Of a stretch of DNA of 64,000 bases, positions 26,375-43,302 are shown in pieces. A model generated the notes under the pieces. That model was given only the letters and a program-made list of their open reading frames with translations. It was not told the DNA's origin and made no database searches. Each line of letters opens with the position of its first letter. The first letter of the stretch is position 1. Location of the stretch: positions 1,248,001-1,312,000 of the forward strand of contig CAVQNG010000003.1 of NCBI GenBank assembly GCA_963713825.1. The letters are read 5' to 3'. The DNA is from an uncultured Acidobacteriota bacterium (GTDB taxonomy: Bacteria; Acidobacteriota; Thermoanaerobaculia; Multivoradales; JAHEKO01). Made by a program: the position numbers and the translations under genes.

Positions 26375-26502
26375 GGCGACCTCCTTACGGGTAGATGGAT
26401 CGTGGCTGTACTGTACCTTCTTCCTGCCCCCTGGTACGATCCTGCGAGGGCAGAAACCGCCGCGCCTCGACCTTTCTCCATTCCATCGCAAGGAGCAAAA
26501 AC

Positions 26503-29500
26503 GTGAAGAAGCTGAGTGCTGTCGTTGTCGCGATTCTCATGTTTGCACCCATCGTCGCAATGGCGGCCGATGAGGCTGCCGCCGAGCTCGAAACCAAGCT
26601 CAACGCCGATACGCTGGCGGGACTCGCCTTGCGAAACATCGGCCCATCCATCAATTCTGGGCGCATCTCGGATTTTGCCGTGACGCCGGGCAAGCGGCAT
26701 CGGTACTTCATTGCCACCTCGTCGGGAAACCTCTGGAAAACCGACAACGCCGGCACGACGTGGACGCCGGTTTTCGACAACGAGGGTTCCTACTCTGTTG
26801 GTGTCGTGACAATGGACCCCAATAACCCGAATGTCATCTGGGCCGGCACTGGCGAGAACAATTCCCAGCGCTCGGTTTCCTTCGGTGATGGCGTCTACAA
26901 GAGCCTGGATGGGGGGCAGAGTTGGTCCCACATGGGCCTGAAGGAATCGGAGCACATCGGAGGAATCGAAGTCGATCCTCGTAACTCCGACGTCGTCTTC
27001 GTCGCCGCCCAGGGTCCACTTTGGAACTCGGGGGGAGAGCGCGGTCTCTACAAGACGATCGATGGCGGCGCCACCTGGGAGCGGGTGCTACATGTCGATG
27101 ACGACACGGGCGCCAACGAGGTCTGGTTGGATCCGCGCGATCCAGACACGATCTATGCCAGCACCTACCAGCGTCGCCGGCATGTATGGACACTGATCAA
27201 CGGTGGTCCCGGTTCCGGAATCTGGAAGTCCATCGACGGTGGCGTCACCTGGCGAGAGCTCGAGAAGGGCCTGCCGAAGGTCGACATGGGCCGCATCGGT
27301 CTGGCCATATCACCGGGTAATCCCGACGTGATCTACGCGATCATCGAGGCGCAGCGCGACGAGGGTGGGGTCTTTCGGACTACGGACCGCGGTGAGAGCT
27401 GGACCAAGCGCGGAGACTACATATCTTCGAGCCCGCAGTACTACAACACGTTGGTCGCCGACCCCCACGACGTCGACACCGTCTACTCACTCGACACGTT
27501 TCTGCAGGTCTCGAAGGATGGTGGTGCGACCTTCACTCCCGTCGGTGAGAAGGCGAAGCACGTGGACAATCACGCCATGTGGATCGATCCGGATGACCCC
27601 GATTATGTGCTCGTGGGGTGTGACGGTGGCGTATACGAGAGTTTCGACCGCGGCGCCAACTGGTTGTTCAAGGAGAATCTGCCGATTACCCAGTTCTACC
27701 GGGTCAGCGTCGACACATCGGAGCCCTTCTACTACGTCTACGGTGGGACCCAGGACAACAACACGCTCGGCGGGCCCAGCCGCACGCTGCGCCAGTCGGG
27801 AATCTCCAACGAAGACTGGTTCATCACTGTCGGTGGCGATGGCTACGAGACCGTGATCGACCCGACCAACCCGGACATCGTCTACTCGCAGTGGCAGTAC
27901 GGGGGTCTGGTGCGCTACGACCGGCGGTCCGAGGAGATCGTCGACATCCAACCGCAGGAAGAGCCGGGGGAGGCTGCCCACCGCTGGAACTGGGACGCAC
28001 CGCTGATCCTCTCCCCTCATTCGCCGACCCGTCTCTATTTTGCCGCTCAGCGTCTCTTCCGCTCGGACGATCGGGGCGATACCTGGACCGCGATCTCCGA
28101 CGACTTGAGCCGACAGATCGATCGTGACCAACTACCGGTCATGGGCCGCGTCTGGGGCATGGACGCAGTGTCCAAGAATCGGTCGACCTCGGACTACGGC
28201 AACATCGTGTCGCTGACCGAGTCCACACTGGAAGAGGGGCTCATCTATGTCGGCACCGACGATGGCCTCATTCAAGTGACCGAGGACGGTGGTGGCAGCT
28301 GGCGCAGGACCGAACGCTTCGCCGGGGTGCCCGAGAACACCTACGTCAGCGACATCGAGGCATCGCGTTTCGATGCCGACACAGCGTATGCCACCTTCGA
28401 CAACCACAAGCAGGGTGACTTCGACCCGTACGTGCTCGTCAGCCGGGACCGCGGTCGCACCTGGAGCTCCATGCGCGGTGACCTGCCGGATCGGGAGGTG
28501 GCCTATACCCTGATCCAGGACCACGTAAAGCCTGAGCTGCTCTTCGTCGGCACCGAGTTCGGCCTTTACGTGACCATCGACGAGGGAAACCACTGGCACC
28601 GGCTGAAGGGCGGCTTCCCGACGATGCAGGTGAGGGACCTCGAGATCCAACGGGACTGGAATGACCTCGCAGTGGCCACCTTCGGCCGCGGGTTCTACAT
28701 TCTGGACGACTACACACCGTTACGGGCCATGACGGAGGACGGCCTGGCGACGGACGAGGCGATCCTCTTCCCGACCAGGGAGGCCCTGCTGTACATCGAG
28801 CAACCCGATCGGGTGGGGGACCGAGGCAAGGGCTTCTGGACGACGCCGAATCCGCCGTTTGGAGCCGTCTTCACCTACTGGCTCCGAGATGGCCTCAAGA
28901 CCAAGAAGGATCTCCGCATCGAGGCCGAGACGGAGGCCAGAGAAGACGAGACCGACGCGCCGCTGTCCACGATGGAGGAGTTGCGGGCAGAGGATCTGGA
29001 GCTGGAGCCGGCAGTGTTCCTCACGGTCCGAGATGGCCAGGGATCGTTGGTCCGCCGGGTGAAAGCCGAGCAGGGTGCTGGACTCCACCGTGTGGCCTGG
29101 GATCTGCGATTGCCGCCCGCGGCACCGACGAGTCTGACGCCGGAAGCCAATCTGTCTCCATGGGCAACGCCCGAGAAGGGTCCACTCGCCTTTCCGGGCT
29201 CCTACACGGCAGCCCTCGAAGCGAGGGTCGGGACGGAATGGCGACCGCTCGGTGGGCCGGTGGATTTCGAGGTCGTGCCGCTGAATCTGGCGACCCTGAC
29301 GCCCGAAGATCAGGCGGCTGTCATGGCTTTCCGCCAAGAGGTTCGCGAACTGCGGCGCAACGTCCTTGGCGCCTCTGAGGTTCTCGGCGAGATCGACCAG
29401 CGCGTCAGCCATCTGCGACAGGCCCTGCTGGATACGCCGGAGGCCGATCTGGCCCTGCTGGTCGAGCTGGAAGGTCTCAAGAGCCAGTTGGATTCGATTC

Positions 29501-29772
29501 AGCTCGCGTTCTCGGGCGATCGGACCCGGTCGAGTCGAAACGTCTTCACGCCACCCTCGATCGTCGGACGCGTGGAGCGCATCGCGTCAGACCAGTGGGA
29601 CACGACGCAGGCTCCAACGACGACCCATAAACAGGGTTACCAGTGGGCGTCGGAGGCCTACGAGTCTGAGCTCTCGAAGATGAGGCAGTTGGTTGTGGCT
29701 CTGGAGACTCTGGAGGAGAAGGCCGACGCAGCCGGGGCACCCTGGACCCCGGGGCGGATGCCCAGCCAATAG
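26503..29772 (+). CDS. Secreted VPS10/BNR (Asp-box) beta-propeller protein, sortilin-like putative glycosyl hydrolase
   Basis: RNIGP..SGRI, many S/TxDGGxTW Asp-boxes, GGTQDN, ATFGRGF; AAGGAG RBS before GTG 26503. Confidence 0.88.
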   Translation: MKKLSAVVVAILMFAPIVAMAADEAAAELETKLNADTLAGLALRNIGPSINSGRISDFAVTPGKRHRYFIATSSGNLWKTDNAGTTWTPVFDNEGSYSVGVVTMDPNNPNVIWAGTGENNSQRSVSFGDGVYKSLDGGQSWSHMGLKESEHIGGIEVDPRNSDVVFVAAQGPLWNSGGERGLYKTIDGGATWERVLHVDDDTGANEVWLDPRDPDTIYASTYQRRRHVWTLINGGPGSGIWKSIDGGVTWRELEKGLPKVDMGRIGLAISPGNPDVIYAIIEAQRDEGGVFRTTDRGESWTKRGDYISSSPQYYNTLVADPHDVDTVYSLDTFLQVSKDGGATFTPVGEKAKHVDNHAMWIDPDDPDYVLVGCDGGVYESFDRGANWLFKENLPITQFYRVSVDTSEPFYYVYGGTQDNNTLGGPSRTLRQSGISNEDWFITVGGDGYETVIDPTNPDIVYSQWQYGGLVRYDRRSEEIVDIQPQEEPGEAAHRWNWDAPLILSPHSPTRLYFAAQRLFRSDDRGDTWTAISDDLSRQIDRDQLPVMGRVWGMDAVSKNRSTSDYGNIVSLTESTLEEGLIYVGTDDGLIQVTEDGGGSWRRTERFAGVPENTYVSDIEASRFDADTAYATFDNHKQGDFDPYVLVSRDRGRTWSSMRGDLPDREVAYTLIQDHVKPELLFVGTEFGLYVTIDEGNHWHRLKGGFPTMQVRDLEIQRDWNDLAVATFGRGFYILDDYTPLRAMTEDGLATDEAILFPTREALLYIEQPDRVGDRGKGFWTTPNPPFGAVFTYWLRDGLKTKKDLRIEAETEAREDETDAPLSTMEELRAEDLELEPAVFLTVRDGQGSLVRRVKAEQGAGLHRVAWDLRLPPAAPTSLTPEANLSPWATPEKGPLAFPGSYTAALEARVGTEWRPLGGPVDFEVVPLNLATLTPEDQAAVMAFRQEVRELRRNVLGASEVLGEIDQRVSHLRQALLDTPEADLALLVELEGLKSQLDSIQLAFSGDRTRSSRNVFTPPSIVGRVERIASDQWDTTQAPTTTHKQGYQWASEAYESELSKMRQLVVALETLEEKADAAGAPWTPGRMPSQ

Positions 29773-32092: not shown

Positions 32093-32455
32093 TCAGGACT
32101 GACGTTCCTCGTACTCGGCCCAGGTTCTCGGCGATTCGCTGACTCGCATTTGGACCAGGGTCGGGAAGACTGGCTTGAATCTCTCGTAGAGAAAGCGCGA
32201 GATGTTCTCGGCGGTGGTGGCGTCTGGCAACACGTCGTTGAGGTTCCGGTGGTCCAGGTGCTGGTTGATGAAGTCCCTGATTGGCGCGAGCTCGTTGTAG
32301 TCCACGACGAACCCCCGGTGGTCGAGCTCCTCGCTCTCGAGCACGGCCTCGACGACGTAGTTGTGGCCATGCAGTCGACTGCACGGGTGATCGTCGGGCA
32401 GGAGGTCCAACTGGTGGGCCGCCGAAAAGTGGAACTGCTTGCTGATTCTGTACAC
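32093..32455 (-). CDS. queD: 6-carboxytetrahydropterin / 6-pyruvoyltetrahydropterin synthase
   Basis: FSAAH, CSRLHGHNY, LDHRNLN, TAENI; GGAGG RBS. Confidence 0.9.
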   Translation of the reverse strand: MYRISKQFHFSAAHQLDLLPDDHPCSRLHGHNYVVEAVLESEELDHRGFVVDYNELAPIRDFINQHLDHRNLNDVLPDATTAENISRFLYERFKPVFPTLVQMRVSESPRTWAEYEERQS

Positions 32456-32466
32456 GTGACCTCCGA

Positions 32467-35139
32467 CTAACTTTCCACCAACTCGAAGCGTCCCTGGAAG
32501 AAGCGGAGCTTCTCGGGTTCGTAGACGAACCGCAGGCCGCGGATGTCGTCACGCCGCTCGTAGAGCCGGATGATGCCGTCGGCCACCGCCCGCATGTGAT
32601 CGCGGGTGTAGACGCGCCGGGGGATTGTCAGGCGCACGAGCTCCAGGGGGGGGCGGTAATTTTCGCCCGTGTTGGGGTCGCGGCCCTTTGAGACGTTGCC
32701 GCGCTCCATGGCCCGGACACCAGTCTCGACGTAGATCTCAGCGGCCAGGCGCTGCGATGGGTACTCGTCCTGGTCGATATGGGGCAGGAAGCGTTTGGCA
32801 TCCAGAAAGATGGCGTGGCTGCCCGGGGGCGTGACGATGGGCACGCCGGCATCCAGGAGCATCTGACCGAGGGCTGCGGTCTGTAGCACTCTGGCTCGAA
32901 TGTAACGGTCGTCGAGCATCTCCTCGACTCCCTGGGCGATGGCTGCCAGATCGCCAGCCGCCAGGCCGCCGTCGGTAATGTTGCCCTCGTAGACGCGCAG
33001 CAGATCCAGCGACTTCTTGGCCCACTCGGCGTTGTCCCGGTAGGCCAGGAGACCGCCGATGTTGATCAGGAAGTCCTTCTTGCCTGAGACCGTGCAGCCG
33101 TCCCCGTAGAGCAGCATCTCGCGGAGGATGTCGCGGACTTTGGTCTTTGCATAATGCGGATCTCGCTGTTGGATCATGTAGGCGTTCTCGGCCATCCGCG
33201 TGGCATCGAAGAAGACCGGAATGTGGTGGTTGGAGCAGTAGGCGTAGACCTCCCGCATGTTCTCCATCGAGACGGGCTGGCCGCCAGCCATGTTCACCGA
33301 GTGCTCGAAAGAGATGTAGGCGATCTTCTCGGCGCCGTGCTCGTCGACCAGGGCCTCCAGCTTGGCCATGTCGATGTTGCCTTTCCAGGGGAACTCGCTG
33401 CTGGGGTCATGGGCCTCGTCGACAATGACGTCGGCGAAAATTCCACCTGCCATCTCCTGGTGAAGCTTGGTCGTGGTGAAGTACATGTTCCCAGGCACCA
33501 GCTGTCCGGGTTCGATCATGACTTCGGAGAGGATCTGTTCGGCGGCGCGCCCCTGATGCGTCGGGATGATGTACTCGTAGCCAGTGGCTTCCCGAAGGAC
33601 CTCCACCAGGTGCAGGTAGTCATCAGAAGTTGTGGGTGTGGCGCGAGCCGCGTCGTAGGCGGCCCACTGGTCGGTGCTCATGGCCGAGGTGCCGGAGTCG
33701 GTGAGCAGATCGATGGTGACGTCCGCCGAGCGCAGAAGAAAGGTGTTGTAGCCCGCCTCTGCAATGGCCTTGCGGCGCTCTTCCAGGCTGAGCGTGGCGA
33801 TGCGCTCTATGGTGTGGATGACGAAGGGATAGGTCTCGAACTCGAAGGGCTCGAGGTCGGAGTAGACCCAGCGATACTGCATCTCGTCCCTCCAGGTTCC
33901 TTCTTGGAGCAGCTCGAGGGGAGGCACGCTGTCCCGTTGCTTGTAGAGACTGATGATGGCATCGGCCACCTGCTCGAGCTGACGAGTCGTCATGGCGAGC
34001 CGTGGAATCTGGACGGGAACCTGATTGTCGCGGCCGACGAGACCGTGGGCCAGGGCGCGAACCCCGGACATTTCGTAGAGGGCGGCAGAGAAAGCATCCT
34101 GCTGGAAAGTCTCCAGATGCGGCAAGAACTCGTCAGCCAGGATGTAGGCGCCGTCGCAGCCCCTCTCCACCGGCACTGCGGCTTCGCGCAGGCGGTTGTT
34201 GAAGTGCTCGGTCTGCTGCATGACCCACTGCACCTCTTCCTCCAAGCACATCTCCTCGAGGCCGCGGGCAAAGACCTCCATGGTCCTTCCCGCCATGCCG
34301 CCGTAGGTGTGGAGGCCCTCGTAGACCACCACTTCGTTCATGAAGTGTTCATGGTCTTCGGGGTTATCCGTGGCCAGCAGGCCACCGGTGGCGCACTTGG
34401 GGTCCTGGGCTCCGTCGATCTGGAAGATGTGGGCGGTTTTGGCGATCTCCTTGACCAGGGCAGCGATGCTGCGAGCCGCCATCCCCTCTTCGTGCCGCTG
34501 GAGGTACCAGGCATTCTCGATGACACGGGAACCGTCGAGCACCAGGCGCTTGCCGTAACGGTCGGCCAGCGCCCGGACGGCGCGCAGGTTCTCCAAGCTG
34601 AAGGGGTGCTGTCCGTCACCGAAGGCTTGCAGGCCCACGATGGCGACCTGGCCCCCTTTCAGGATCTCCTCGAGCCGTTCGAGGTCCACATTGCCGGTGA
34701 AGACCTCGGCCTTGTGATCCCGGATATCGGGGACCTCCACATCGCGAGGGGTCAGGACGTCGATGCGGGTACGGGCATTGGAAGGCAGCTGTGAACCAGC
34801 CGGCACCATGGTGGAGGTGACCAGCTTGACGCATCCCAGTACGTTGTGGGTCGGGCAGATGTAGGTGTGTCCCAGGACCTCGTGCACGGCCTTTTCCAGG
34901 CGCTCGAAGTTCCGAGCTCCGGCGTAGGCCTCGTCGCCGATGAGCTGACCCGATAGCTGCTCCTGGGTCATGGCACTCGTGCCGAGTGAGCACATGTCGA
35001 AGGCAACCTGGGAGGGAGTCAGGTTGAAGACGTTGAAGTGGGCCTCCGCCAGGTATTTCTTGCGTTCCTCGAGAGTGGGGAAGGAGATCGGTCGGATCGT
35101 CTTGATCTTGTGCGGCTCGTGCGCGAGCATTCGGGTCAT
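32467..35139 (-). CDS. Tandem-duplicated tyrosine phenol-lyase/tryptophanase-family protein (two fused beta-eliminating lyase subunits)
   Basis: C-half has DLLTDSGT, THQGR, GNMYFTTT, DATR, SGKKD, RLTIPRR and LRFF; N-half is a second degenerate copy with GDEAY and YEGLHTYGG; AGGAGG RBS. Confidence 0.9.
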   Translation of the reverse strand: MTRMLAHEPHKIKTIRPISFPTLEERKKYLAEAHFNVFNLTPSQVAFDMCSLGTSAMTQEQLSGQLIGDEAYAGARNFERLEKAVHEVLGHTYICPTHNVLGCVKLVTSTMVPAGSQLPSNARTRIDVLTPRDVEVPDIRDHKAEVFTGNVDLERLEEILKGGQVAIVGLQAFGDGQHPFSLENLRAVRALADRYGKRLVLDGSRVIENAWYLQRHEEGMAARSIAALVKEIAKTAHIFQIDGAQDPKCATGGLLATDNPEDHEHFMNEVVVYEGLHTYGGMAGRTMEVFARGLEEMCLEEEVQWVMQQTEHFNNRLREAAVPVERGCDGAYILADEFLPHLETFQQDAFSAALYEMSGVRALAHGLVGRDNQVPVQIPRLAMTTRQLEQVADAIISLYKQRDSVPPLELLQEGTWRDEMQYRWVYSDLEPFEFETYPFVIHTIERIATLSLEERRKAIAEAGYNTFLLRSADVTIDLLTDSGTSAMSTDQWAAYDAARATPTTSDDYLHLVEVLREATGYEYIIPTHQGRAAEQILSEVMIEPGQLVPGNMYFTTTKLHQEMAGGIFADVIVDEAHDPSSEFPWKGNIDMAKLEALVDEHGAEKIAYISFEHSVNMAGGQPVSMENMREVYAYCSNHHIPVFFDATRMAENAYMIQQRDPHYAKTKVRDILREMLLYGDGCTVSGKKDFLINIGGLLAYRDNAEWAKKSLDLLRVYEGNITDGGLAAGDLAAIAQGVEEMLDDRYIRARVLQTAALGQMLLDAGVPIVTPPGSHAIFLDAKRFLPHIDQDEYPSQRLAAEIYVETGVRAMERGNVSKGRDPNTGENYRPPLELVRLTIPRRVYTRDHMRAVADGIIRLYERRDDIRGLRFVYEPEKLRFFQGRFELVES

Positions 35140-35292
35140 GAGATTCTCCTCCTGTGACGGTCACGGGGCGAGGCTGTTGCCCGGAGAAAGTGACAATCGT
35201 TGCTGAAATGAAAGGCGGCCCAGAATCCGGCCGCGTGGGTGCTTCTGTTGCCCAACGGGAGCAGATTCCCGCCGGGACCACTTTAGCATGCA
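35140..35292 (-). promoter_or_regulatory. Candidate structured 5' leader of the lyase-queD-thpR operon
   Basis: Extended -10-like TGCTAAAGT near 35281-35289, hairpin CGGGA-N6-TCCCG, then GCGGCC-N8-GGCCGC followed by CTTTCATTT (minus strand). Confidence 0.35.
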
Positions 35293-38839: not shown

Positions 38840-38887
38840 GAAGAGAAGGCCCCGAGTGTAGGGTTGAAAGCCGACGACGGAGGAGTC

Positions 38888-40048
38888 ATGAATGAGATCG
38901 ACCGGAGGAACTTCCTGATGATGAGCTCTGCAGGAGCGGCAGCGCTCGGTTTGGGCGGTGGCACGGCGGGTGCGGAGGAACCCGATGGTGGACCTTCGCC
39001 CGTGGTGCGAATGCACGGCGACGGCCTTGGCTTGACCCCCGGAGAGTACGCGGCATGTCTCGGGCAGCTAGCTGCCGAGGGCAAGGTCGAGCCCGATTAC
39101 TACTCGCGAGGGGGGTGCGTCGAGACTCTGGAACGCCGAATGGCGGAGCTGTTGGGCAAGGAACGGGCCGTCTTCTTTCCGACCGGAACGCTTGCCAATC
39201 AACTCGCGGTCAGGGTGTTGGCCGGAGAGGAGGGCAGGGTTCTCTTGCAGGAGGAGAGCCACCTCTACAACGACTCTGGGGACTGTTGTCAGCGATTGAG
39301 CAATCTACCCGTGATCGGATTGGGGCCAGGTGAGGCGTCGTTTTCGCTGCAGCAAGTCAAGGCCGAGGTGGCGAGGGCCGCCAGCGGCAGAGTTAGCACC
39401 CCAATCCGCGTCATCAGCATCGAGTCGCCCGTCCGCCGGCTCTGGCAGGAGGTCTTCGACTACGAGGAAATGAAGGGCATTTCGGCCTTTGCGCGTGAGG
39501 AAGGCATCGGCATGCACCTCGATGGTGCCAGGCTCTTTCTGGCGCCGCCCTACACTGGGGTGGGCGTCAAGGAGTATGCGGCGCTCTTCGACACCGTCTA
39601 CATTTCACTTTGGAAGTACTTCAACGCGGGGTCTGGCGCGATTCTGGCGGGCCCGGATGCTCTGCTGAAAGAGATGTTCCATACGCGCCGCATGTACGGT
39701 GGCAGCCTGCCCTATGGCTGGGCCTTCGCAGCGGTGGCAGGCCACTACCTCGAGGGCTTCTCGGACCGATTCCAGGAGGCGGTCAATGGGTCGGAGGAGG
39801 TCCTCCGGCGCCTGGAACAGCAATCGGGCTTCGAGATCGAGCGCGTCCCCAACGGCACCAACACTTCCCGCCTAAAAGTGGCTGGCACCAATGCGCAGGA
39901 ATTTCGGCGGCGGCTGGCTGAGAGGAACATCGACCTCCCCAAGCCACTGGAAGAGGGCGCGGAATTCAAGATCCAGGTCAACGAGACCTGGCGCTTCATG
40001 GCGCCAGAACTGTTGTTCGAGGCGCTGGTCGAGGCCAGGTCCGGCTAG
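38888..40048 (+). CDS. Tat-signal low-specificity threonine aldolase family (PLP) enzyme
   Basis: DRRNFL twin-arginine signal, PTGTLANQ, ESHLY, HLDGAR, SLWKY (PLP Lys). Confidence 0.85.
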   Translation: MNEIDRRNFLMMSSAGAAALGLGGGTAGAEEPDGGPSPVVRMHGDGLGLTPGEYAACLGQLAAEGKVEPDYYSRGGCVETLERRMAELLGKERAVFFPTGTLANQLAVRVLAGEEGRVLLQEESHLYNDSGDCCQRLSNLPVIGLGPGEASFSLQQVKAEVARAASGRVSTPIRVISIESPVRRLWQEVFDYEEMKGISAFAREEGIGMHLDGARLFLAPPYTGVGVKEYAALFDTVYISLWKYFNAGSGAILAGPDALLKEMFHTRRMYGGSLPYGWAFAAVAGHYLEGFSDRFQEAVNGSEEVLRRLEQQSGFEIERVPNGTNTSRLKVAGTNAQEFRRRLAERNIDLPKPLEEGAEFKIQVNETWRFMAPELLFEALVEARSG

Positions 40049-40063: not shown

Positions 40064-43060
40064 CTACTGAACTTCGGCACTCTCCAGACGGTCGATCGCT
40101 TGGGCGAACAACTCGCGTTGCGGCTCGGTGGGCGGGGCGTCGGTGCTTTCCAGGTCCGAGGCCAGTGAGGTCAATACCCTGGCAACGGATCGAACCTCAT
40201 CGTCGGCTTCGCCGCCAGCCTCCTCGGTCTGGGCCACCAGGGCTACCACCCTCTCCAGTGCAGCCGCAATCTCGTTCTGGAGCTCCAACAAGTTCGACAA
40301 CTCGGCCGAGGTGACCTCGACGCGTGGATCCATGGCCACCTCGAGCTTTTGCGAGACAGTCTGGCCGCCGGCTGTAAGCCGGACCTCATAGGTGCCAGGT
40401 AGCACGAAAGCGCCCTCGGGTCGGGCAGGCGTCGCCCGGCCGGGCACAGCGGCGATGGAGTAGCTCGAGCTGAGGGTCTGGGGCGCCGGGTAGCGCAGAT
40501 CCCAAACGAACCGATGGTGTCCAGGTCCCGTAGTTGGCGTTGGAGGTTCGCCTAGCCAGATGTCGGCGAAGTAGATGCGCGCATTGGGCGGCTCGATCTC
40601 GTCGTCGCTGCCGAAGCGCCTGACCAGCGTGCCCTTGGAGTCGAGAATCTCGAGAACCACAGGGCCGGTTCCGTTGGACGGCAGGATGTAGTCCAGGATT
40701 GCTCCTGCCGGCGGGTTTTCACCTGTCGGCTCCTCTGGGGGCAACGGCGTGTCCTTGTTTTGATTGAAGCGAAGGCGCCAGGCGGCAGAAGGCGGCACCA
40801 GGACTGGTTCATCCCCGAGGTCGGCGGCCGCCAGCCGCCGTAGGGGAGCCACGGCGTCCAGGACCCAGATCGCCCGACCTTCGGTGGCCACGATCACATC
40901 GTCCTCATGGACCAGAAGGTCGTTGATGCCGGTCGTTGGAAGATTGAGCTTCAGGCTTTGCCAGGTCTCGCCGTCGTCAAAAGAAACGTGGACCCCGCGA
41001 TTCGTGCCTGTGAAGAGCAGGCCCGCTTGCTCCGGGTCCTGCCGTATCGCACCGACCCATTCGTTGGGTGGCAGACCATTCCCGATCTCGGTCCAGGTGG
41101 CCCCAAAGTCGTGGGTGCGGTAGGCCATCGGCCTTGGGTCGTCGACTCGGTGACGATCGACAGCCACGTAGGCGGTCCCGGGGTCCGAGGCGGAGGCGTC
41201 GATGATGTTGACTTTGCTCCAATCGGGCAGGCTCGGCGGAGTGACGTCGCTCCAGGTGGCGCCGTCATCTCGTGTGAGCTGAATCCGGCCATTGGTTGTC
41301 CCTATCCAGATCAGGCCGTCCGCGGCCGGTGACGGGGCAATCGCGAAGATCACGCCGTAGCCGCACTCGGTGGCTCGCTCCATGGGGACGTCGCCATCGC
41401 AATCGCCGGCCTCTTCGACAGCTCCCGTCAGATCGGGACTGATGGTGTCCCAGCTGGCGCCTCCGTCGAGAGATCGGAACAGGACCTGAGCGCCGACGAA
41501 GATGGGGTGTGGTGAGCGCGGGGATATGGCCAAGGGTGTTATCCAGTCGTAGCGGTAGCGCGTCGTTCCGGGGCGTGCCGCATAGCTCGACAGCGGCCAA
41601 GGAGAGACGTTCTGTACCTGCCCGGTACGTCCGTTCCATTTGGAGACCCTGCCGCCCAGACCGGCGCCGTAGACAATGTCGGGATCGGCAGGATCGGGCA
41701 CATCACCATCTCGCTCGTCGCCGCCTACTGGGCTCCAATCGCGAAACGTGATCTGGCCATAGTCGCTGCGGCTGGCGATACCCACCGTGCCGCTGTCCTG
41801 TTGTCCGCTGTAGATGCGATAGGGGAATCGATTGTCCACGGCCAGGCGATAGAACTGTCCGGTCGGTTGGTTGTACCAACTACTCCAACTCTTGCCGCCG
41901 TTGAAGGTAACGACTGCGCCCTGGTCGGCGCCGGTGATCATGCGTTGGGAATCGGTGGGGTCGATCCACAGGGCGTGGTAGTCATCGCCGCCGGGTGAGC
42001 TACGGACGATCTGAAAAGTCGTGCCTCCGTCAGTGGAGCGGCGGAGGGGCTGTCCTCCCGCCCAGACCGTGTTGGAATCCGAGGGGCCGGGCAAGAGCCA
42101 GCCCATGTAGCTCCCCACCAGGCTGGAATCGTCGTTGACCAGTTCCCAGGTGACCCCACCGTCTTCGGAGCGATAGAGACCACCGCCATCGGCAAGCTCC
42201 AATCCTGCCCAGACCCGTTGGCCGTCAGTACCTGGCGCGACTGCCAGCTCGATGCGACTGGTTGGTTCTTCCGGCAATCCGGTGCCAGCCACTTTTGTCC
42301 AGGTGCGGCCGGCGTCGTCGGATCGGTAGATGCCACTATTCGGCCCGACTGTGGGCTGAAAGTAGTCCAGCCAAGGGTAGCGACGGACCTGCCAGAGAGA
42401 GGCGTAGAGAAGGTCTGGAAGCTCGGGTGTGCCAGCGATGTCAGCAGCCCCTGAATCGGCATCCAGATAGAGGACCTTGTCCCAGCTGTGACCACCATCC
42501 TCGGTGCGGAACAGTCCACGCTCTTCGTTGGGTCCGAAGACGTGTCCCAGGGCCGCGACGATGGCGGTGTCGGCGTTCCTGGGATCCACCCAGAGGGCTC
42601 CGATGTGTTTCGTATCCTCGAGCCCGAGATGCATCCAGGTCTCTCCACCGTCGGTGGAGCGGTAGACGCCGTCGCCATCGACAATGTCCCAGCGTTGATG
42701 GATCTGTCCGGTGCCGACCCAGATGACCTGCGGGTCGCTGGGCGCGATCGTCAAGGCGCCGATGGAGGCGCTCCCCTGGTCATCGAAGAGCGGCTGCCAC
42801 GTCGAGCCGGCGTCGGTAGTTCTCCATACGCCACCGTCAGCGCCGCCGAAGTAGTAGGTTGCCGGATCGCCTGGGATGCCGGCTACAGCTGTCGCCCAGC
42901 CGCCACGAAAAGGTCCGACGAGCCGCCAGCTGAGAGCGGAGTAGGCTGATTCGGGAACTGCCATCTGGGCGGCGACTGACGCCCCCGCACCGAGCATGGC
43001 CAGTCCTGAGATTGCAAGAATTGAGCTGATAGAGACGAACCTTCGACTGAGATCGATCAC
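40064..43060 (-). CDS. Second secreted VPS10/BNR beta-propeller protein
   Basis: WRLVGPFRGG, repeated Asp-boxes, GQQDSG, ATEGR; AGGAGGGAG RBS before GTG 43060. Confidence 0.88.
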   Translation of the reverse strand: MIDLSRRFVSISSILAISGLAMLGAGASVAAQMAVPESAYSALSWRLVGPFRGGWATAVAGIPGDPATYYFGGADGGVWRTTDAGSTWQPLFDDQGSASIGALTIAPSDPQVIWVGTGQIHQRWDIVDGDGVYRSTDGGETWMHLGLEDTKHIGALWVDPRNADTAIVAALGHVFGPNEERGLFRTEDGGHSWDKVLYLDADSGAADIAGTPELPDLLYASLWQVRRYPWLDYFQPTVGPNSGIYRSDDAGRTWTKVAGTGLPEEPTSRIELAVAPGTDGQRVWAGLELADGGGLYRSEDGGVTWELVNDDSSLVGSYMGWLLPGPSDSNTVWAGGQPLRRSTDGGTTFQIVRSSPGGDDYHALWIDPTDSQRMITGADQGAVVTFNGGKSWSSWYNQPTGQFYRLAVDNRFPYRIYSGQQDSGTVGIASRSDYGQITFRDWSPVGGDERDGDVPDPADPDIVYGAGLGGRVSKWNGRTGQVQNVSPWPLSSYAARPGTTRYRYDWITPLAISPRSPHPIFVGAQVLFRSLDGGASWDTISPDLTGAVEEAGDCDGDVPMERATECGYGVIFAIAPSPAADGLIWIGTTNGRIQLTRDDGATWSDVTPPSLPDWSKVNIIDASASDPGTAYVAVDRHRVDDPRPMAYRTHDFGATWTEIGNGLPPNEWVGAIRQDPEQAGLLFTGTNRGVHVSFDDGETWQSLKLNLPTTGINDLLVHEDDVIVATEGRAIWVLDAVAPLRRLAAADLGDEPVLVPPSAAWRLRFNQNKDTPLPPEEPTGENPPAGAILDYILPSNGTGPVVLEILDSKGTLVRRFGSDDEIEPPNARIYFADIWLGEPPTPTTGPGHHRFVWDLRYPAPQTLSSSYSIAAVPGRATPARPEGAFVLPGTYEVRLTAGGQTVSQKLEVAMDPRVEVTSAELSNLLELQNEIAAALERVVALVAQTEEAGGEADDEVRSVARVLTSLASDLESTDAPPTEPQRELFAQAIDRLESAEVQ

Positions 43061-43302
43061 AGGGTACTCCCTCCTTGGTGTGATGATAGCTCTGCTGGAT
43101 TGCGATCCAGGCGGTGTTGGTTGATATGAGTGCCGAGAACCTGCGACCTTGGACGCACACACCTCACCTTAATTCGGGTTGAGAGGTTGGTCGGGCTGCT
43201 CTCGAGCGAACTCTGGGCCGTCGGTCAGACCAGGTGCCAGGGGAATTGCGAAGCGGACCAACGCACCTCGTTGTCTGGCAATCGAGGTCCTGTCGTCAGT
43301 AG

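Follow-up and report, generated by a model that had tools for sequence, protein, structure and literature searches.

We analysed a 64,000-nucleotide window (positions 1,248,001 to 1,312,000 of contig CAVQNG010000003.1, assembly GCA_963713825.1) from an uncultured Acidobacteriota bacterium, focusing on a reverse-strand gene that encodes a protein of two fused domains, both related to tyrosine phenol-lyase (TPL) (Table 1). A sequence-only reading of this DNA had proposed that the protein is a single-chain pseudo-dimer with reciprocally degenerate halves. The open reading frame (ORF) and motifs on which that reading relied are present as described, with 19 of the 19 motifs searched for at the positions it gave (SKGR was not searched for). 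Existing annotation names the fused gene simply 'tyrosine phenol-lyase' or 'tryptophanase', and neither NCBIfam nor Pfam holds a model specific to the fused form.

The N-terminal domain (N-half) and the C-terminal domain (C-half) are joined by a short linker, where an alignment of 110 sequences shows conservation of 90% or more at G414, W416, R417 and D418. The Pfam family PF01212 (beta-eliminating lyase) was found twice, scoring 88.5 bits in the N-half and 231.8 bits in the C-half against a gathering score of 27. With the TPL equivalog model TIGR02618 (EC 4.1.99.2; cut-off 720.7 bits), the whole chain reached 874.2 bits only as the sum of two stretches; the C-half alone scored 630.5 bits and the N-half alone 248.7 bits. 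The tryptophanase equivalog TIGR02617 gave 602.9 bits for the whole protein, under its cut-off of 825.8. Identity between the two halves is 29% (E = 3e-49), and that of the C-half to TPLs of solved structure is 53-54%. In the N-half, the motifs GDEAY, THNVLG, SNARTR, DGAQD, YEGLHTYGG and PVQIPR start at residues 68, 97, 120, 242, 273 and 375, respectively. The C-half carries DLLTDSGT (from residue 477), ARATP (498), THQGR (527), GNMYFTTT (550), SGKKD (685, containing K688), YEGNITDGG (717), RLTIPR (836) and RFFQ (879).

Canonical TPL is a homotetramer of identical 456-residue subunits, each with one pyridoxal 5'-phosphate (PLP), according to PMC10170061. There, Lys257 is the Schiff-base lysine, Tyr71 the general acid and Arg381 the general base, Thr124 fixes the phenol hydroxyl, Phe448/449 strain the substrate, and the PLP lysine sits at an interface to which the adjacent subunit contributes its large domain (PMC10170061). 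In Escherichia coli tryptophanase (TnaA), Y74 and Y307 hydrogen-bond the PLP phosphate of the adjacent subunit (PMC2770544). Below, residues that serve a subunit's own site are termed cis and those lent to the partner's site trans. In TPL, Glu69 is a trans residue that acts as a cation ligand, and Arg404 binds the carboxylate.

Using residue-by-residue HMMER alignments to the Protein Data Bank (PDB) structures 1c7g and 9j3u, we placed both halves on TPL numbering; re-aligning them to a profile of 64 single-domain relatives gave an identical residue assignment. The C-half (E = 2.4e-162 against 1c7g) retains T49, D50, S51, G52, Q98-G99-R100, F123, T124, N185, D214, T216, R217, S254, K256, K257, N262, M379, R381, R404, F448 and F449, that is, 22 of the 22 cofactor and substrate residues checked. 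Its equivalent residues include Q529-G530-R531, F554-T555 (F123-T124), K688 (K257), R813 (R381), R836 (R404) and F880-F881 (F448-F449). At the trans positions, it has A500 for E69, P502 for Y71, N720 for M288, D723 for Y291 and G729 for R297. The mapping therefore agrees with the sequence-only reading that the C-half keeps the cis elements and loses the trans ones, Tyr71, Glu69 and Tyr291 among them.

The N-half (E = 2.7e-59 against 1c7g) is the mirror image, as had also been claimed: Gln stands in place of Lys257 and Pro in place of Arg404, whereas the trans residues E70 (E69), Y72 (Y71), Y279 (Y291), G280-G281 and R285 (R297) are present, with L276 at the position of TPL M288. Its phosphate binders are replaced, by N99-V100-L101 for Q98-G99-R100 and D242 for S254, and it has A244-Q245 for K256-K257, H365 for R381 and P375 for R404. 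By alignment, the positions of T49, F123 and T124 are deleted and that of N185 is either deleted or aligned to Asp; the C-terminal RFF is absent. D214 and R217 survive as D202 and R205. The PLP-binding set of TPL (K257, D214, R217, S254 and Q98-G99-R100) is thus complete in the C-half, and five of its members are replaced in the N-half. Alignment to E. coli TnaA gave the same division, with Y74 matched by Y72 in the N-half and P502 in the C-half, Y307 by Y279 and D723, K270 by Q245 and K688, and R103 by L101 and R531. The specificity positions of the C-half are of TPL type, with T555, R813 and F880 where TnaA has D137, I396 and H463. The general acid Tyr71 therefore has a counterpart (Y72) solely in the half that lacks the lysine, whereas canonical TPL has one in every subunit.

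We next asked how widely the fused form occurs. In a best-match search that covered proteins of 489-1558 residues, the best 120 database matches had 73-100% identity, and 118 had a length of 840-935 residues. A search of 50%-identity clusters that used no word index added 11 full-length two-domain representatives at 36-53% identity. Among the best 80 loci in a GTDB set of one genome per species, 37 are two-domain ORFs, 30 of them complete. By the labels of their metagenome-assembled genomes (MAGs), the hosts of two-domain ORFs include Planctomycetota, Gemmatimonadota, Myxococcota/Deltaproteobacteria, Acidobacteriota, Eisenbacteria, Gammaproteobacteria, Bacteroidota, Nitrospiraceae and Anaerolineales. 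In a sample of 301 Acidobacteriota genomes, an N-half orthologue was found in 9 (8 of 185 genera), always inside an open frame of 842-994 residues; carriers include genomes G049, G084, G133, G240, G245 and G250. Fused copies in MAGs labelled as other phyla (loci L014-L033) reach up to 67-79% identity. Despite the patchy spread, identity across distant groups is 70-84%, and these two features together suggest horizontal transfer of the fused gene.

The junction is also supported by independent DNA. A stretch spanning it is present in 16 DNA runs from 10 studies (sediment and salt-marsh metagenomes), and a 560-nucleotide contig of another metagenome crosses the linker with 1 mismatch. A single 155-nucleotide contig from an RNA library is identical to positions 33730-33883 of the window, although this match is not proof of transcription. 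We found no clean split family of stand-alone N-half genes: the high-identity matches of 238-758 residues were labelled partial, lay on short contigs or had frameshift-like tails. Some fused copies (P0275, P0288, P0311, P0315, P0325 and P0350), whose contigs range from 40 kb to 3 Mb, have premature stops at varied points; such early-stopping copies end in tails rich in Arg, Ser and Pro and look like frameshifts, whether assembly errors or real pseudogenes.

Conservation follows the same division of residues. In the close group of 118 sequences, every N-half kept E70, Y72, Y279 and R285 and had Gln at the Lys257 position, and every C-half kept the 17 catalytic cis residues that were checked, K688, T555, R813, F880 and F881 among them. 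The trans positions of the C-half vary. That of E69 is Ala in 108, Ser in 6, Pro in 2 and Glu in 2, that of Y71 is Pro in 70, Ala in 35, Thr in 8 and Ser in 5, and the others are D114/N4 and A65/S31/G21/C1. The full reciprocal pattern is carried by 29 of the 30 complete species-representative ORFs. In their N-halves, Lys257 and Arg404 are absent (30/30), Tyr291 is kept (30/30), Leu occupies the M288 position (30/30) and Tyr71 is kept in 29, the exception being L053, which shows an alignment gap at its N-terminus. In their C-halves, Lys257 and Arg404 are kept (30/30) and Tyr71 and Tyr291 are absent (30/30). The TPL signature T124/R381/F448 occurs intact in 28 of the 30; L027 is cut by a contig end and L033 has Leu at 448.

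Among 12 diverse fused members (43-90% identity), G68, D69, E70, A71, Y72, A73, G74, R76 and N77 are invariant. In the N-half, the two trans segments hold 30 columns, of which 22 are invariant, versus 30 of 403 elsewhere, a concentration well above chance expectation (Fisher 1.7e-16, a p value overstated by the kinship of the sequences). The corresponding figures for the C-half are 5 of 30 versus 137 of 427. Conversely, invariant cofactor and substrate positions number 22 of 22 in the C-half and 2 of 16 in the N-half. In comparisons with four orthologues of the same genus or family, the N-half gave a dN/dS of 0.052-0.061 and the C-half one of 0.024-0.053. Strong purifying selection acts on both halves, and the N-half, given its dN/dS, is maintained rather than decaying.

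We used AlphaFold2 with the 110-sequence alignment to model the whole chain. The model has a mean pLDDT (predicted local distance difference test score) of 91.6 and a pTM (predicted TM-score) of 0.88, values that argue for a defined packing of the two predicted domains. Its C-half superimposes on Citrobacter freundii TPL (6dvx_A) with a Z score of 59.5 and a root-mean-square deviation of 1.2 Å over 451 of 451 residues. No solved chain spanning both halves was present among the Foldseek matches, for which the best query-normalised TM-score was 0.49; the Foldseek and VIA structure matches covered only residues 429-890.

A site between two C-halves would lack both partner-reaching tyrosines, and a site between two N-halves would lack the lysine; the catalytic interface is therefore expected to form between an N-half and a C-half, giving one composite site per chain. 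The residue mapping, family conservation, purifying selection and whole-chain pTM are all in keeping with the reciprocally degenerate single-chain pseudo-dimer of the sequence-only reading and with the composite and dead sites that it implied. On this basis, we consider it probable that the protein is a single-chain pseudo-heterodimer with one composite TPL-type active site per chain. One PLP per chain, the catalytic-type pairing of N-half with C-half and the substrate are what we infer from the sequence.

In the mechanism that we propose, the C-half would bind PLP through K688, D645, R648, S685 and Q529-G530-R531, and would hold the substrate through the TPL-type specificity residues T480, F554, T555, N616, M811, R813, R836, F880 and F881. 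The N-half, unable to bind PLP, would pack on the C-half like the partner subunit in the catalytic dimer of TPL. It would insert Tyr72 as general acid and Tyr279 as a hydrogen-bond donor to the PLP phosphate into the C-half site, and would also lend Leu276 to the substrate pocket and Glu70 to a cation site, the role of its TPL counterpart Glu69. The outcome would be one composite active site and one dead pocket per chain, with N:C pairing that may be intra-chain or swapped between two chains. The N-half retains an N-terminal arm motif (E8, P9 and K13), as does the C-half (P438 and E445), and two chains may on this account assemble like the TPL tetramer, forming a pseudo-tetramer through these arms. 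The reaction is most likely the beta-elimination of L-tyrosine to phenol, pyruvate and ammonium, because the C-halves are sister to TPL-signature proteins (see below) and Leu is shared with such proteins at position 288.

Several observations weigh against this interpretation. The C-half alone falls short of the TIGR02618 cut-off. Some fusions of the wider family depart from the pattern. P0132, whose N-half is very degenerate, aligns a Lys there and has Tyr71 in its C-half, and the more distant P0133, P0135, P0136 and P0137 (864-909 residues, 36-40% identity) retain Lys257 and Arg404 in both halves; in these four, the C-half has neither Arg381 nor Tyr291 and falls outside the TPL clade. The group of four may have two PLP sites, and may represent an earlier stage or an independent fusion. 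Tyr71 is, moreover, dispensable for some substrates, the effect of its replacement in TPL varying by substrate (PMC3870968), and by analogy a lone C-half might still turn over substrates with good leaving groups.

That substrate dependence is also what gives some room to a self-sufficient C-half, acting as a C:C pair or a monomer, with the N-half only a scaffold, solubility or regulatory domain. The remodelled N-half pocket would suit such a role in the main clade, where 17 of 19 loci, from species of several phyla, share N99, L101, D202, R205, D242 and Q245. We nevertheless find this decidedly improbable: N-half conservation peaks exactly at the two partner-reaching segments, the matching segments of the C-half are degenerate in a way that would cripple a C:C site, and the N-half pocket varies in the wider family. 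The same variation bears on the earlier suggestion that the dead site may be regulatory, which is not supported, as only 2 of 16 cis positions are invariant across the wider family, although it may apply within the main clade. Recruitment of the N-half pocket as a second, PLP-independent ligand site is a quite unlikely extension of the pseudo-heterodimer; if true, it would make the enzyme a self-regulated, intrinsically asymmetric lyase, beyond the reach of homodimeric TPL. A different substrate within the same architecture, aromatic or beta-substituted, such as 3,4-dihydroxyphenylalanine (DOPA), halotyrosines or S-substituted cysteines, or a mainly beta-replacement activity, is unlikely but deserves more weight. 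It would fit the shortfall of the C-half with the TPL model, the partner-lent Leu276 in place of the Met288 of solved TPLs and the lack of a conserved neighbour gene hinting at tyrosine catabolism. However, the C-half shows no variation at the TPL specificity residues T124, R381, F448 and F449 (PMC10170061), metagenomic single-domain proteins of TPL type likewise have Leu at 288, and the C-half lies within the TPL-type clade.

Two PLP sites per chain, with the second formed, for example, through K248 of the N-half DPK motif, would require cofactor binding by a half that has lost the phosphate binders (Q98, G99, R100 and S254 are now N, V, L and D), whose F123, T124 and N185 are deleted or replaced and whose R404 is Pro, and at a site for which the C-half offers neither partner Tyr71 nor Tyr291. 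In the 110-sequence alignment, made up mostly of the main clade, conservation of K248, D202 and R205 is 90% or more, and the N-halves of P0133, P0135 and P0137 keep Lys257, Q98-G99-R100 and S254; K248 itself varies among the 12 diverse members, and we regard two sites in this protein as highly improbable. The concern that the fusion is an assembly artefact, raised with the original proposal, and the related idea of a decaying pseudogene draw on the long-contig entries that stop early with frameshift-like tails. The full length of 118 of the best 120 matches, the 16 DNA runs, the linker bridged in another metagenome, a dN/dS of about 0.05 in both halves, the open frame and a strong ribosome-binding site ahead of the start all speak against this pair of ideas. 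The chance of either is negligible, and we treat both as refuted for practical purposes.

To place the two halves among their relatives, we constructed phylogenetic trees. The C-halves form a clade (Shimodaira–Hasegawa-like approximate likelihood-ratio support 97) that is sister (93) to single-domain TPL-signature proteins, and the TPL-type placement recurs in a second tree. The N-half clade (99) joins the tree at an unresolved base. Approximately unbiased (AU) tests rejected neither the union of the N-halves with the TPL set (p = 0.209) nor that with the tryptophanase set (p = 0.154). Profile scores of the N-half put TPL ahead by 10 to 60 bits when compared with a size-matched tryptophanase profile, a weak lean, and were about equal against a 25-sequence profile.

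At nine of the best 80 loci, a tryptophanase-type gene is followed directly by a separate TPL-type gene, the two being spaced by the stop codon plus 5-67 nucleotides or overlapping. Their hosts are mostly MAGs labelled Bacteroidota/Chitinophagaceae/Saprospiraceae, with one Woeseiaceae. The upstream gene has D124, I/V381 and H448 and the downstream gene T124, R381 and F448; both are complete with all cis and trans residues, save that the upstream copy of L048 is cut by the contig end. These pairs run in the same order as the halves, so a fusion of neighbours would fit the domain order and the pairs are a possible precursor arrangement, yet they encode separate, non-degenerate proteins. With such pairs at nine loci, the N-half at an unresolved base and neither origin rejected by the AU tests, the 'clean' duplication-fusion of the sequence-only reading is not established.

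The fused lyase resembles several known systems. It shares the PLP-, carboxylate- and phenol-binding residues of its C-half with canonical TPL (C. freundii, Erwinia herbicola; PDB 2ez1, 1c7g, 6dvx and 9j3u), but each TPL subunit carries both the cis and the trans set, whereas the fused chain consists of two unlike domains with one set each. TnaA (E. coli, Proteus vulgaris; PDB 2c44 and 1ax4) has the same fold and catalytic-dimer logic, with specificity residues that differ from those of the C-half. The long, homodimeric form of the glycine decarboxylase P-protein (GcvP), at about 950 residues, also comprises two homologous fold-type-I halves with PLP in the C-terminal half only, and in some bacteria is split into two subunits; it belongs to another family and catalyses another reaction than the fused lyase.

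The closest parallel in design is serine palmitoyltransferase (SPT). In the eukaryotic SPT1/SPT2 heterodimer, the PLP lysine and catalytic residues are missing from one partner, and the enzyme presumably has a single interface site, while the coccolithovirus SPT is a natural single-chain fusion of both partners (PMC6148460). The likeness, a Lys-less partner and a Lys-bearing one in one chain (here Q245 versus K688), is one of design only: SPT is a membrane-associated alpha-oxoamine synthase with other chemistry, and 3a2b matched our model with a Z score of 30.4 at 14% identity. In the viral chimaera, the lysine-bearing part is N-terminal, whereas in the fused lyase it is C-terminal, and the sections of PMC6148460 on these partners describe no reciprocal loss of trans residues in the active one. 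Searches of open-access full texts, a coverage that excludes subscription journals and supplements, turned up no account of TPL or tryptophanase in fused form. Within that coverage, the earlier statement that no characterised example was known stands for the fused TPL family, but not for the design principle, which is already known in SPT (PMC6148460).

Within the same genome, the sole other member of the TPL/tryptophanase family is a tryptophanase-type single-domain paralogue with all cis and trans residues. In the window itself, the neighbours of the fused gene (QueD-like, RNA 2',3'-cyclic phosphodiesterase, glycerate-kinase-like and TetR genes) recur only within the genus. When the ORFs surrounding 39 fused loci were clustered de novo, any neighbour in common was confined to close relatives; no cluster exceeded 5 loci, and those in the largest were all labelled Gemmatimonadales or Gemmatimonadaceae. 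The QueD-like gene, which scores 87.8 bits with TIGR03367, slightly under the cut-off of 89.25, is probably co-transcribed with the lyase because it starts so soon after the lyase stop codon; this linkage recurs in one same-genus locus only (L004). A third PF01212 protein of 394 residues lies 3.7 kb away and resembles GntG-family or low-specificity threonine aldolases, falling under both NCBIfam cut-offs (113.9 versus 230 and 74.7 versus 312 bits). The region is flanked by two large proteins that contain BNR/Asp-box repeats and Sortilin-Vps10 domains.

Table 1. Features of the fused lyase gene, its surroundings and related loci. Positions are those of the window unless a locus or genome is named.
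Feature	Position	Strand	Remarks
Whole coding sequence, fused two-domain TPL-like lyase	32467..35139	-	890 residues plus TAG stop; ATG start; open frame
Shine-Dalgarno AGGAGG	35148..35153	-	8 nt ahead of the lyase ATG; read from the sequence
N-half, degenerate lyase domain without PLP lysine, putative donor of trans residues	33907..35139	-	Residues 1-411
Linker between halves	33832..33906	-	Residues 412-436
C-half, TPL-type catalytic domain with all cis residues	32470..33831	-	Residues 437-890
N-half trans segment 1, IGDEAYAGARN	34909..34941	-	Residues 67-77; E70 (TPL E69), Y72 (TPL Y71, E. coli TnaA Y74)
N-half trans segment 2, VVVYEGLHTYGGMAGRTME	34276..34332	-	Residues 270-288; L276 (M288), Y279 (Y291, TnaA Y307), R285 (R297)
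Codon of Q245, counterpart of the PLP lysine (predicted dead site)	34405..34407	-	By alignment to TPL
SGKKD with K688, predicted PLP Schiff-base lysine	33073..33087	-	Residues 685-689; TPL K257, TnaA K270
C-half degenerate trans segment 1	33619..33651	-	Residues 497-507; A500/P502 for E69/Y71
C-half degenerate trans segment 2	32944..33000	-	Residues 714-732; N720/D723/G729 for M288/Y291/R297
QueD/PTPS-like gene	32093-32455	-	GTG start 11 nt past lyase stop; own GGAGG; PF01242
Third PF01212 protein	38864-40048	+	394 residues
Flanking large protein	26395-29772	+	1125 residues
Flanking large protein	40064-43162	-	1032 residues
Tryptophanase-type paralogue, locus L011	G000:C25:56618-57979	+	42% identical to C-half; TIGR02617 492 bits, under cut-off
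Tandem pair	L044:108-2939		
Tandem pair	L045:5716-8751		
Tandem pair	L048:3-2489		
Tandem pair	L049:5986-8793		
Tandem pair	L052:5947-8889		
Tandem pair	L075:5983-8745		
Tandem pair	L079:130-3209		
Tandem pair	L084:3688-6454		
Tandem pair	L087:5929-8755		

In TPL and tryptophanase, both textbook PLP enzymes, two identical subunits build each site; the fused lyase would represent such a dimer frozen into one chain, each half having lost what the other supplies, and as such it offers a natural experiment on which active-site residues act in cis and which in trans. As a one-site scaffold, it would allow the two faces of the active site to be mutated independently, which is impossible in a homodimer and could be useful in engineering the synthesis of L-DOPA and tyrosine analogues. 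Asymmetrisation may have had stages represented by separate neighbouring genes, by fusions that keep Lys in each half and by fully reciprocal proteins, although a single lineage is not implied. Some of the phenol in sediments and soils may come from the fused lyase.

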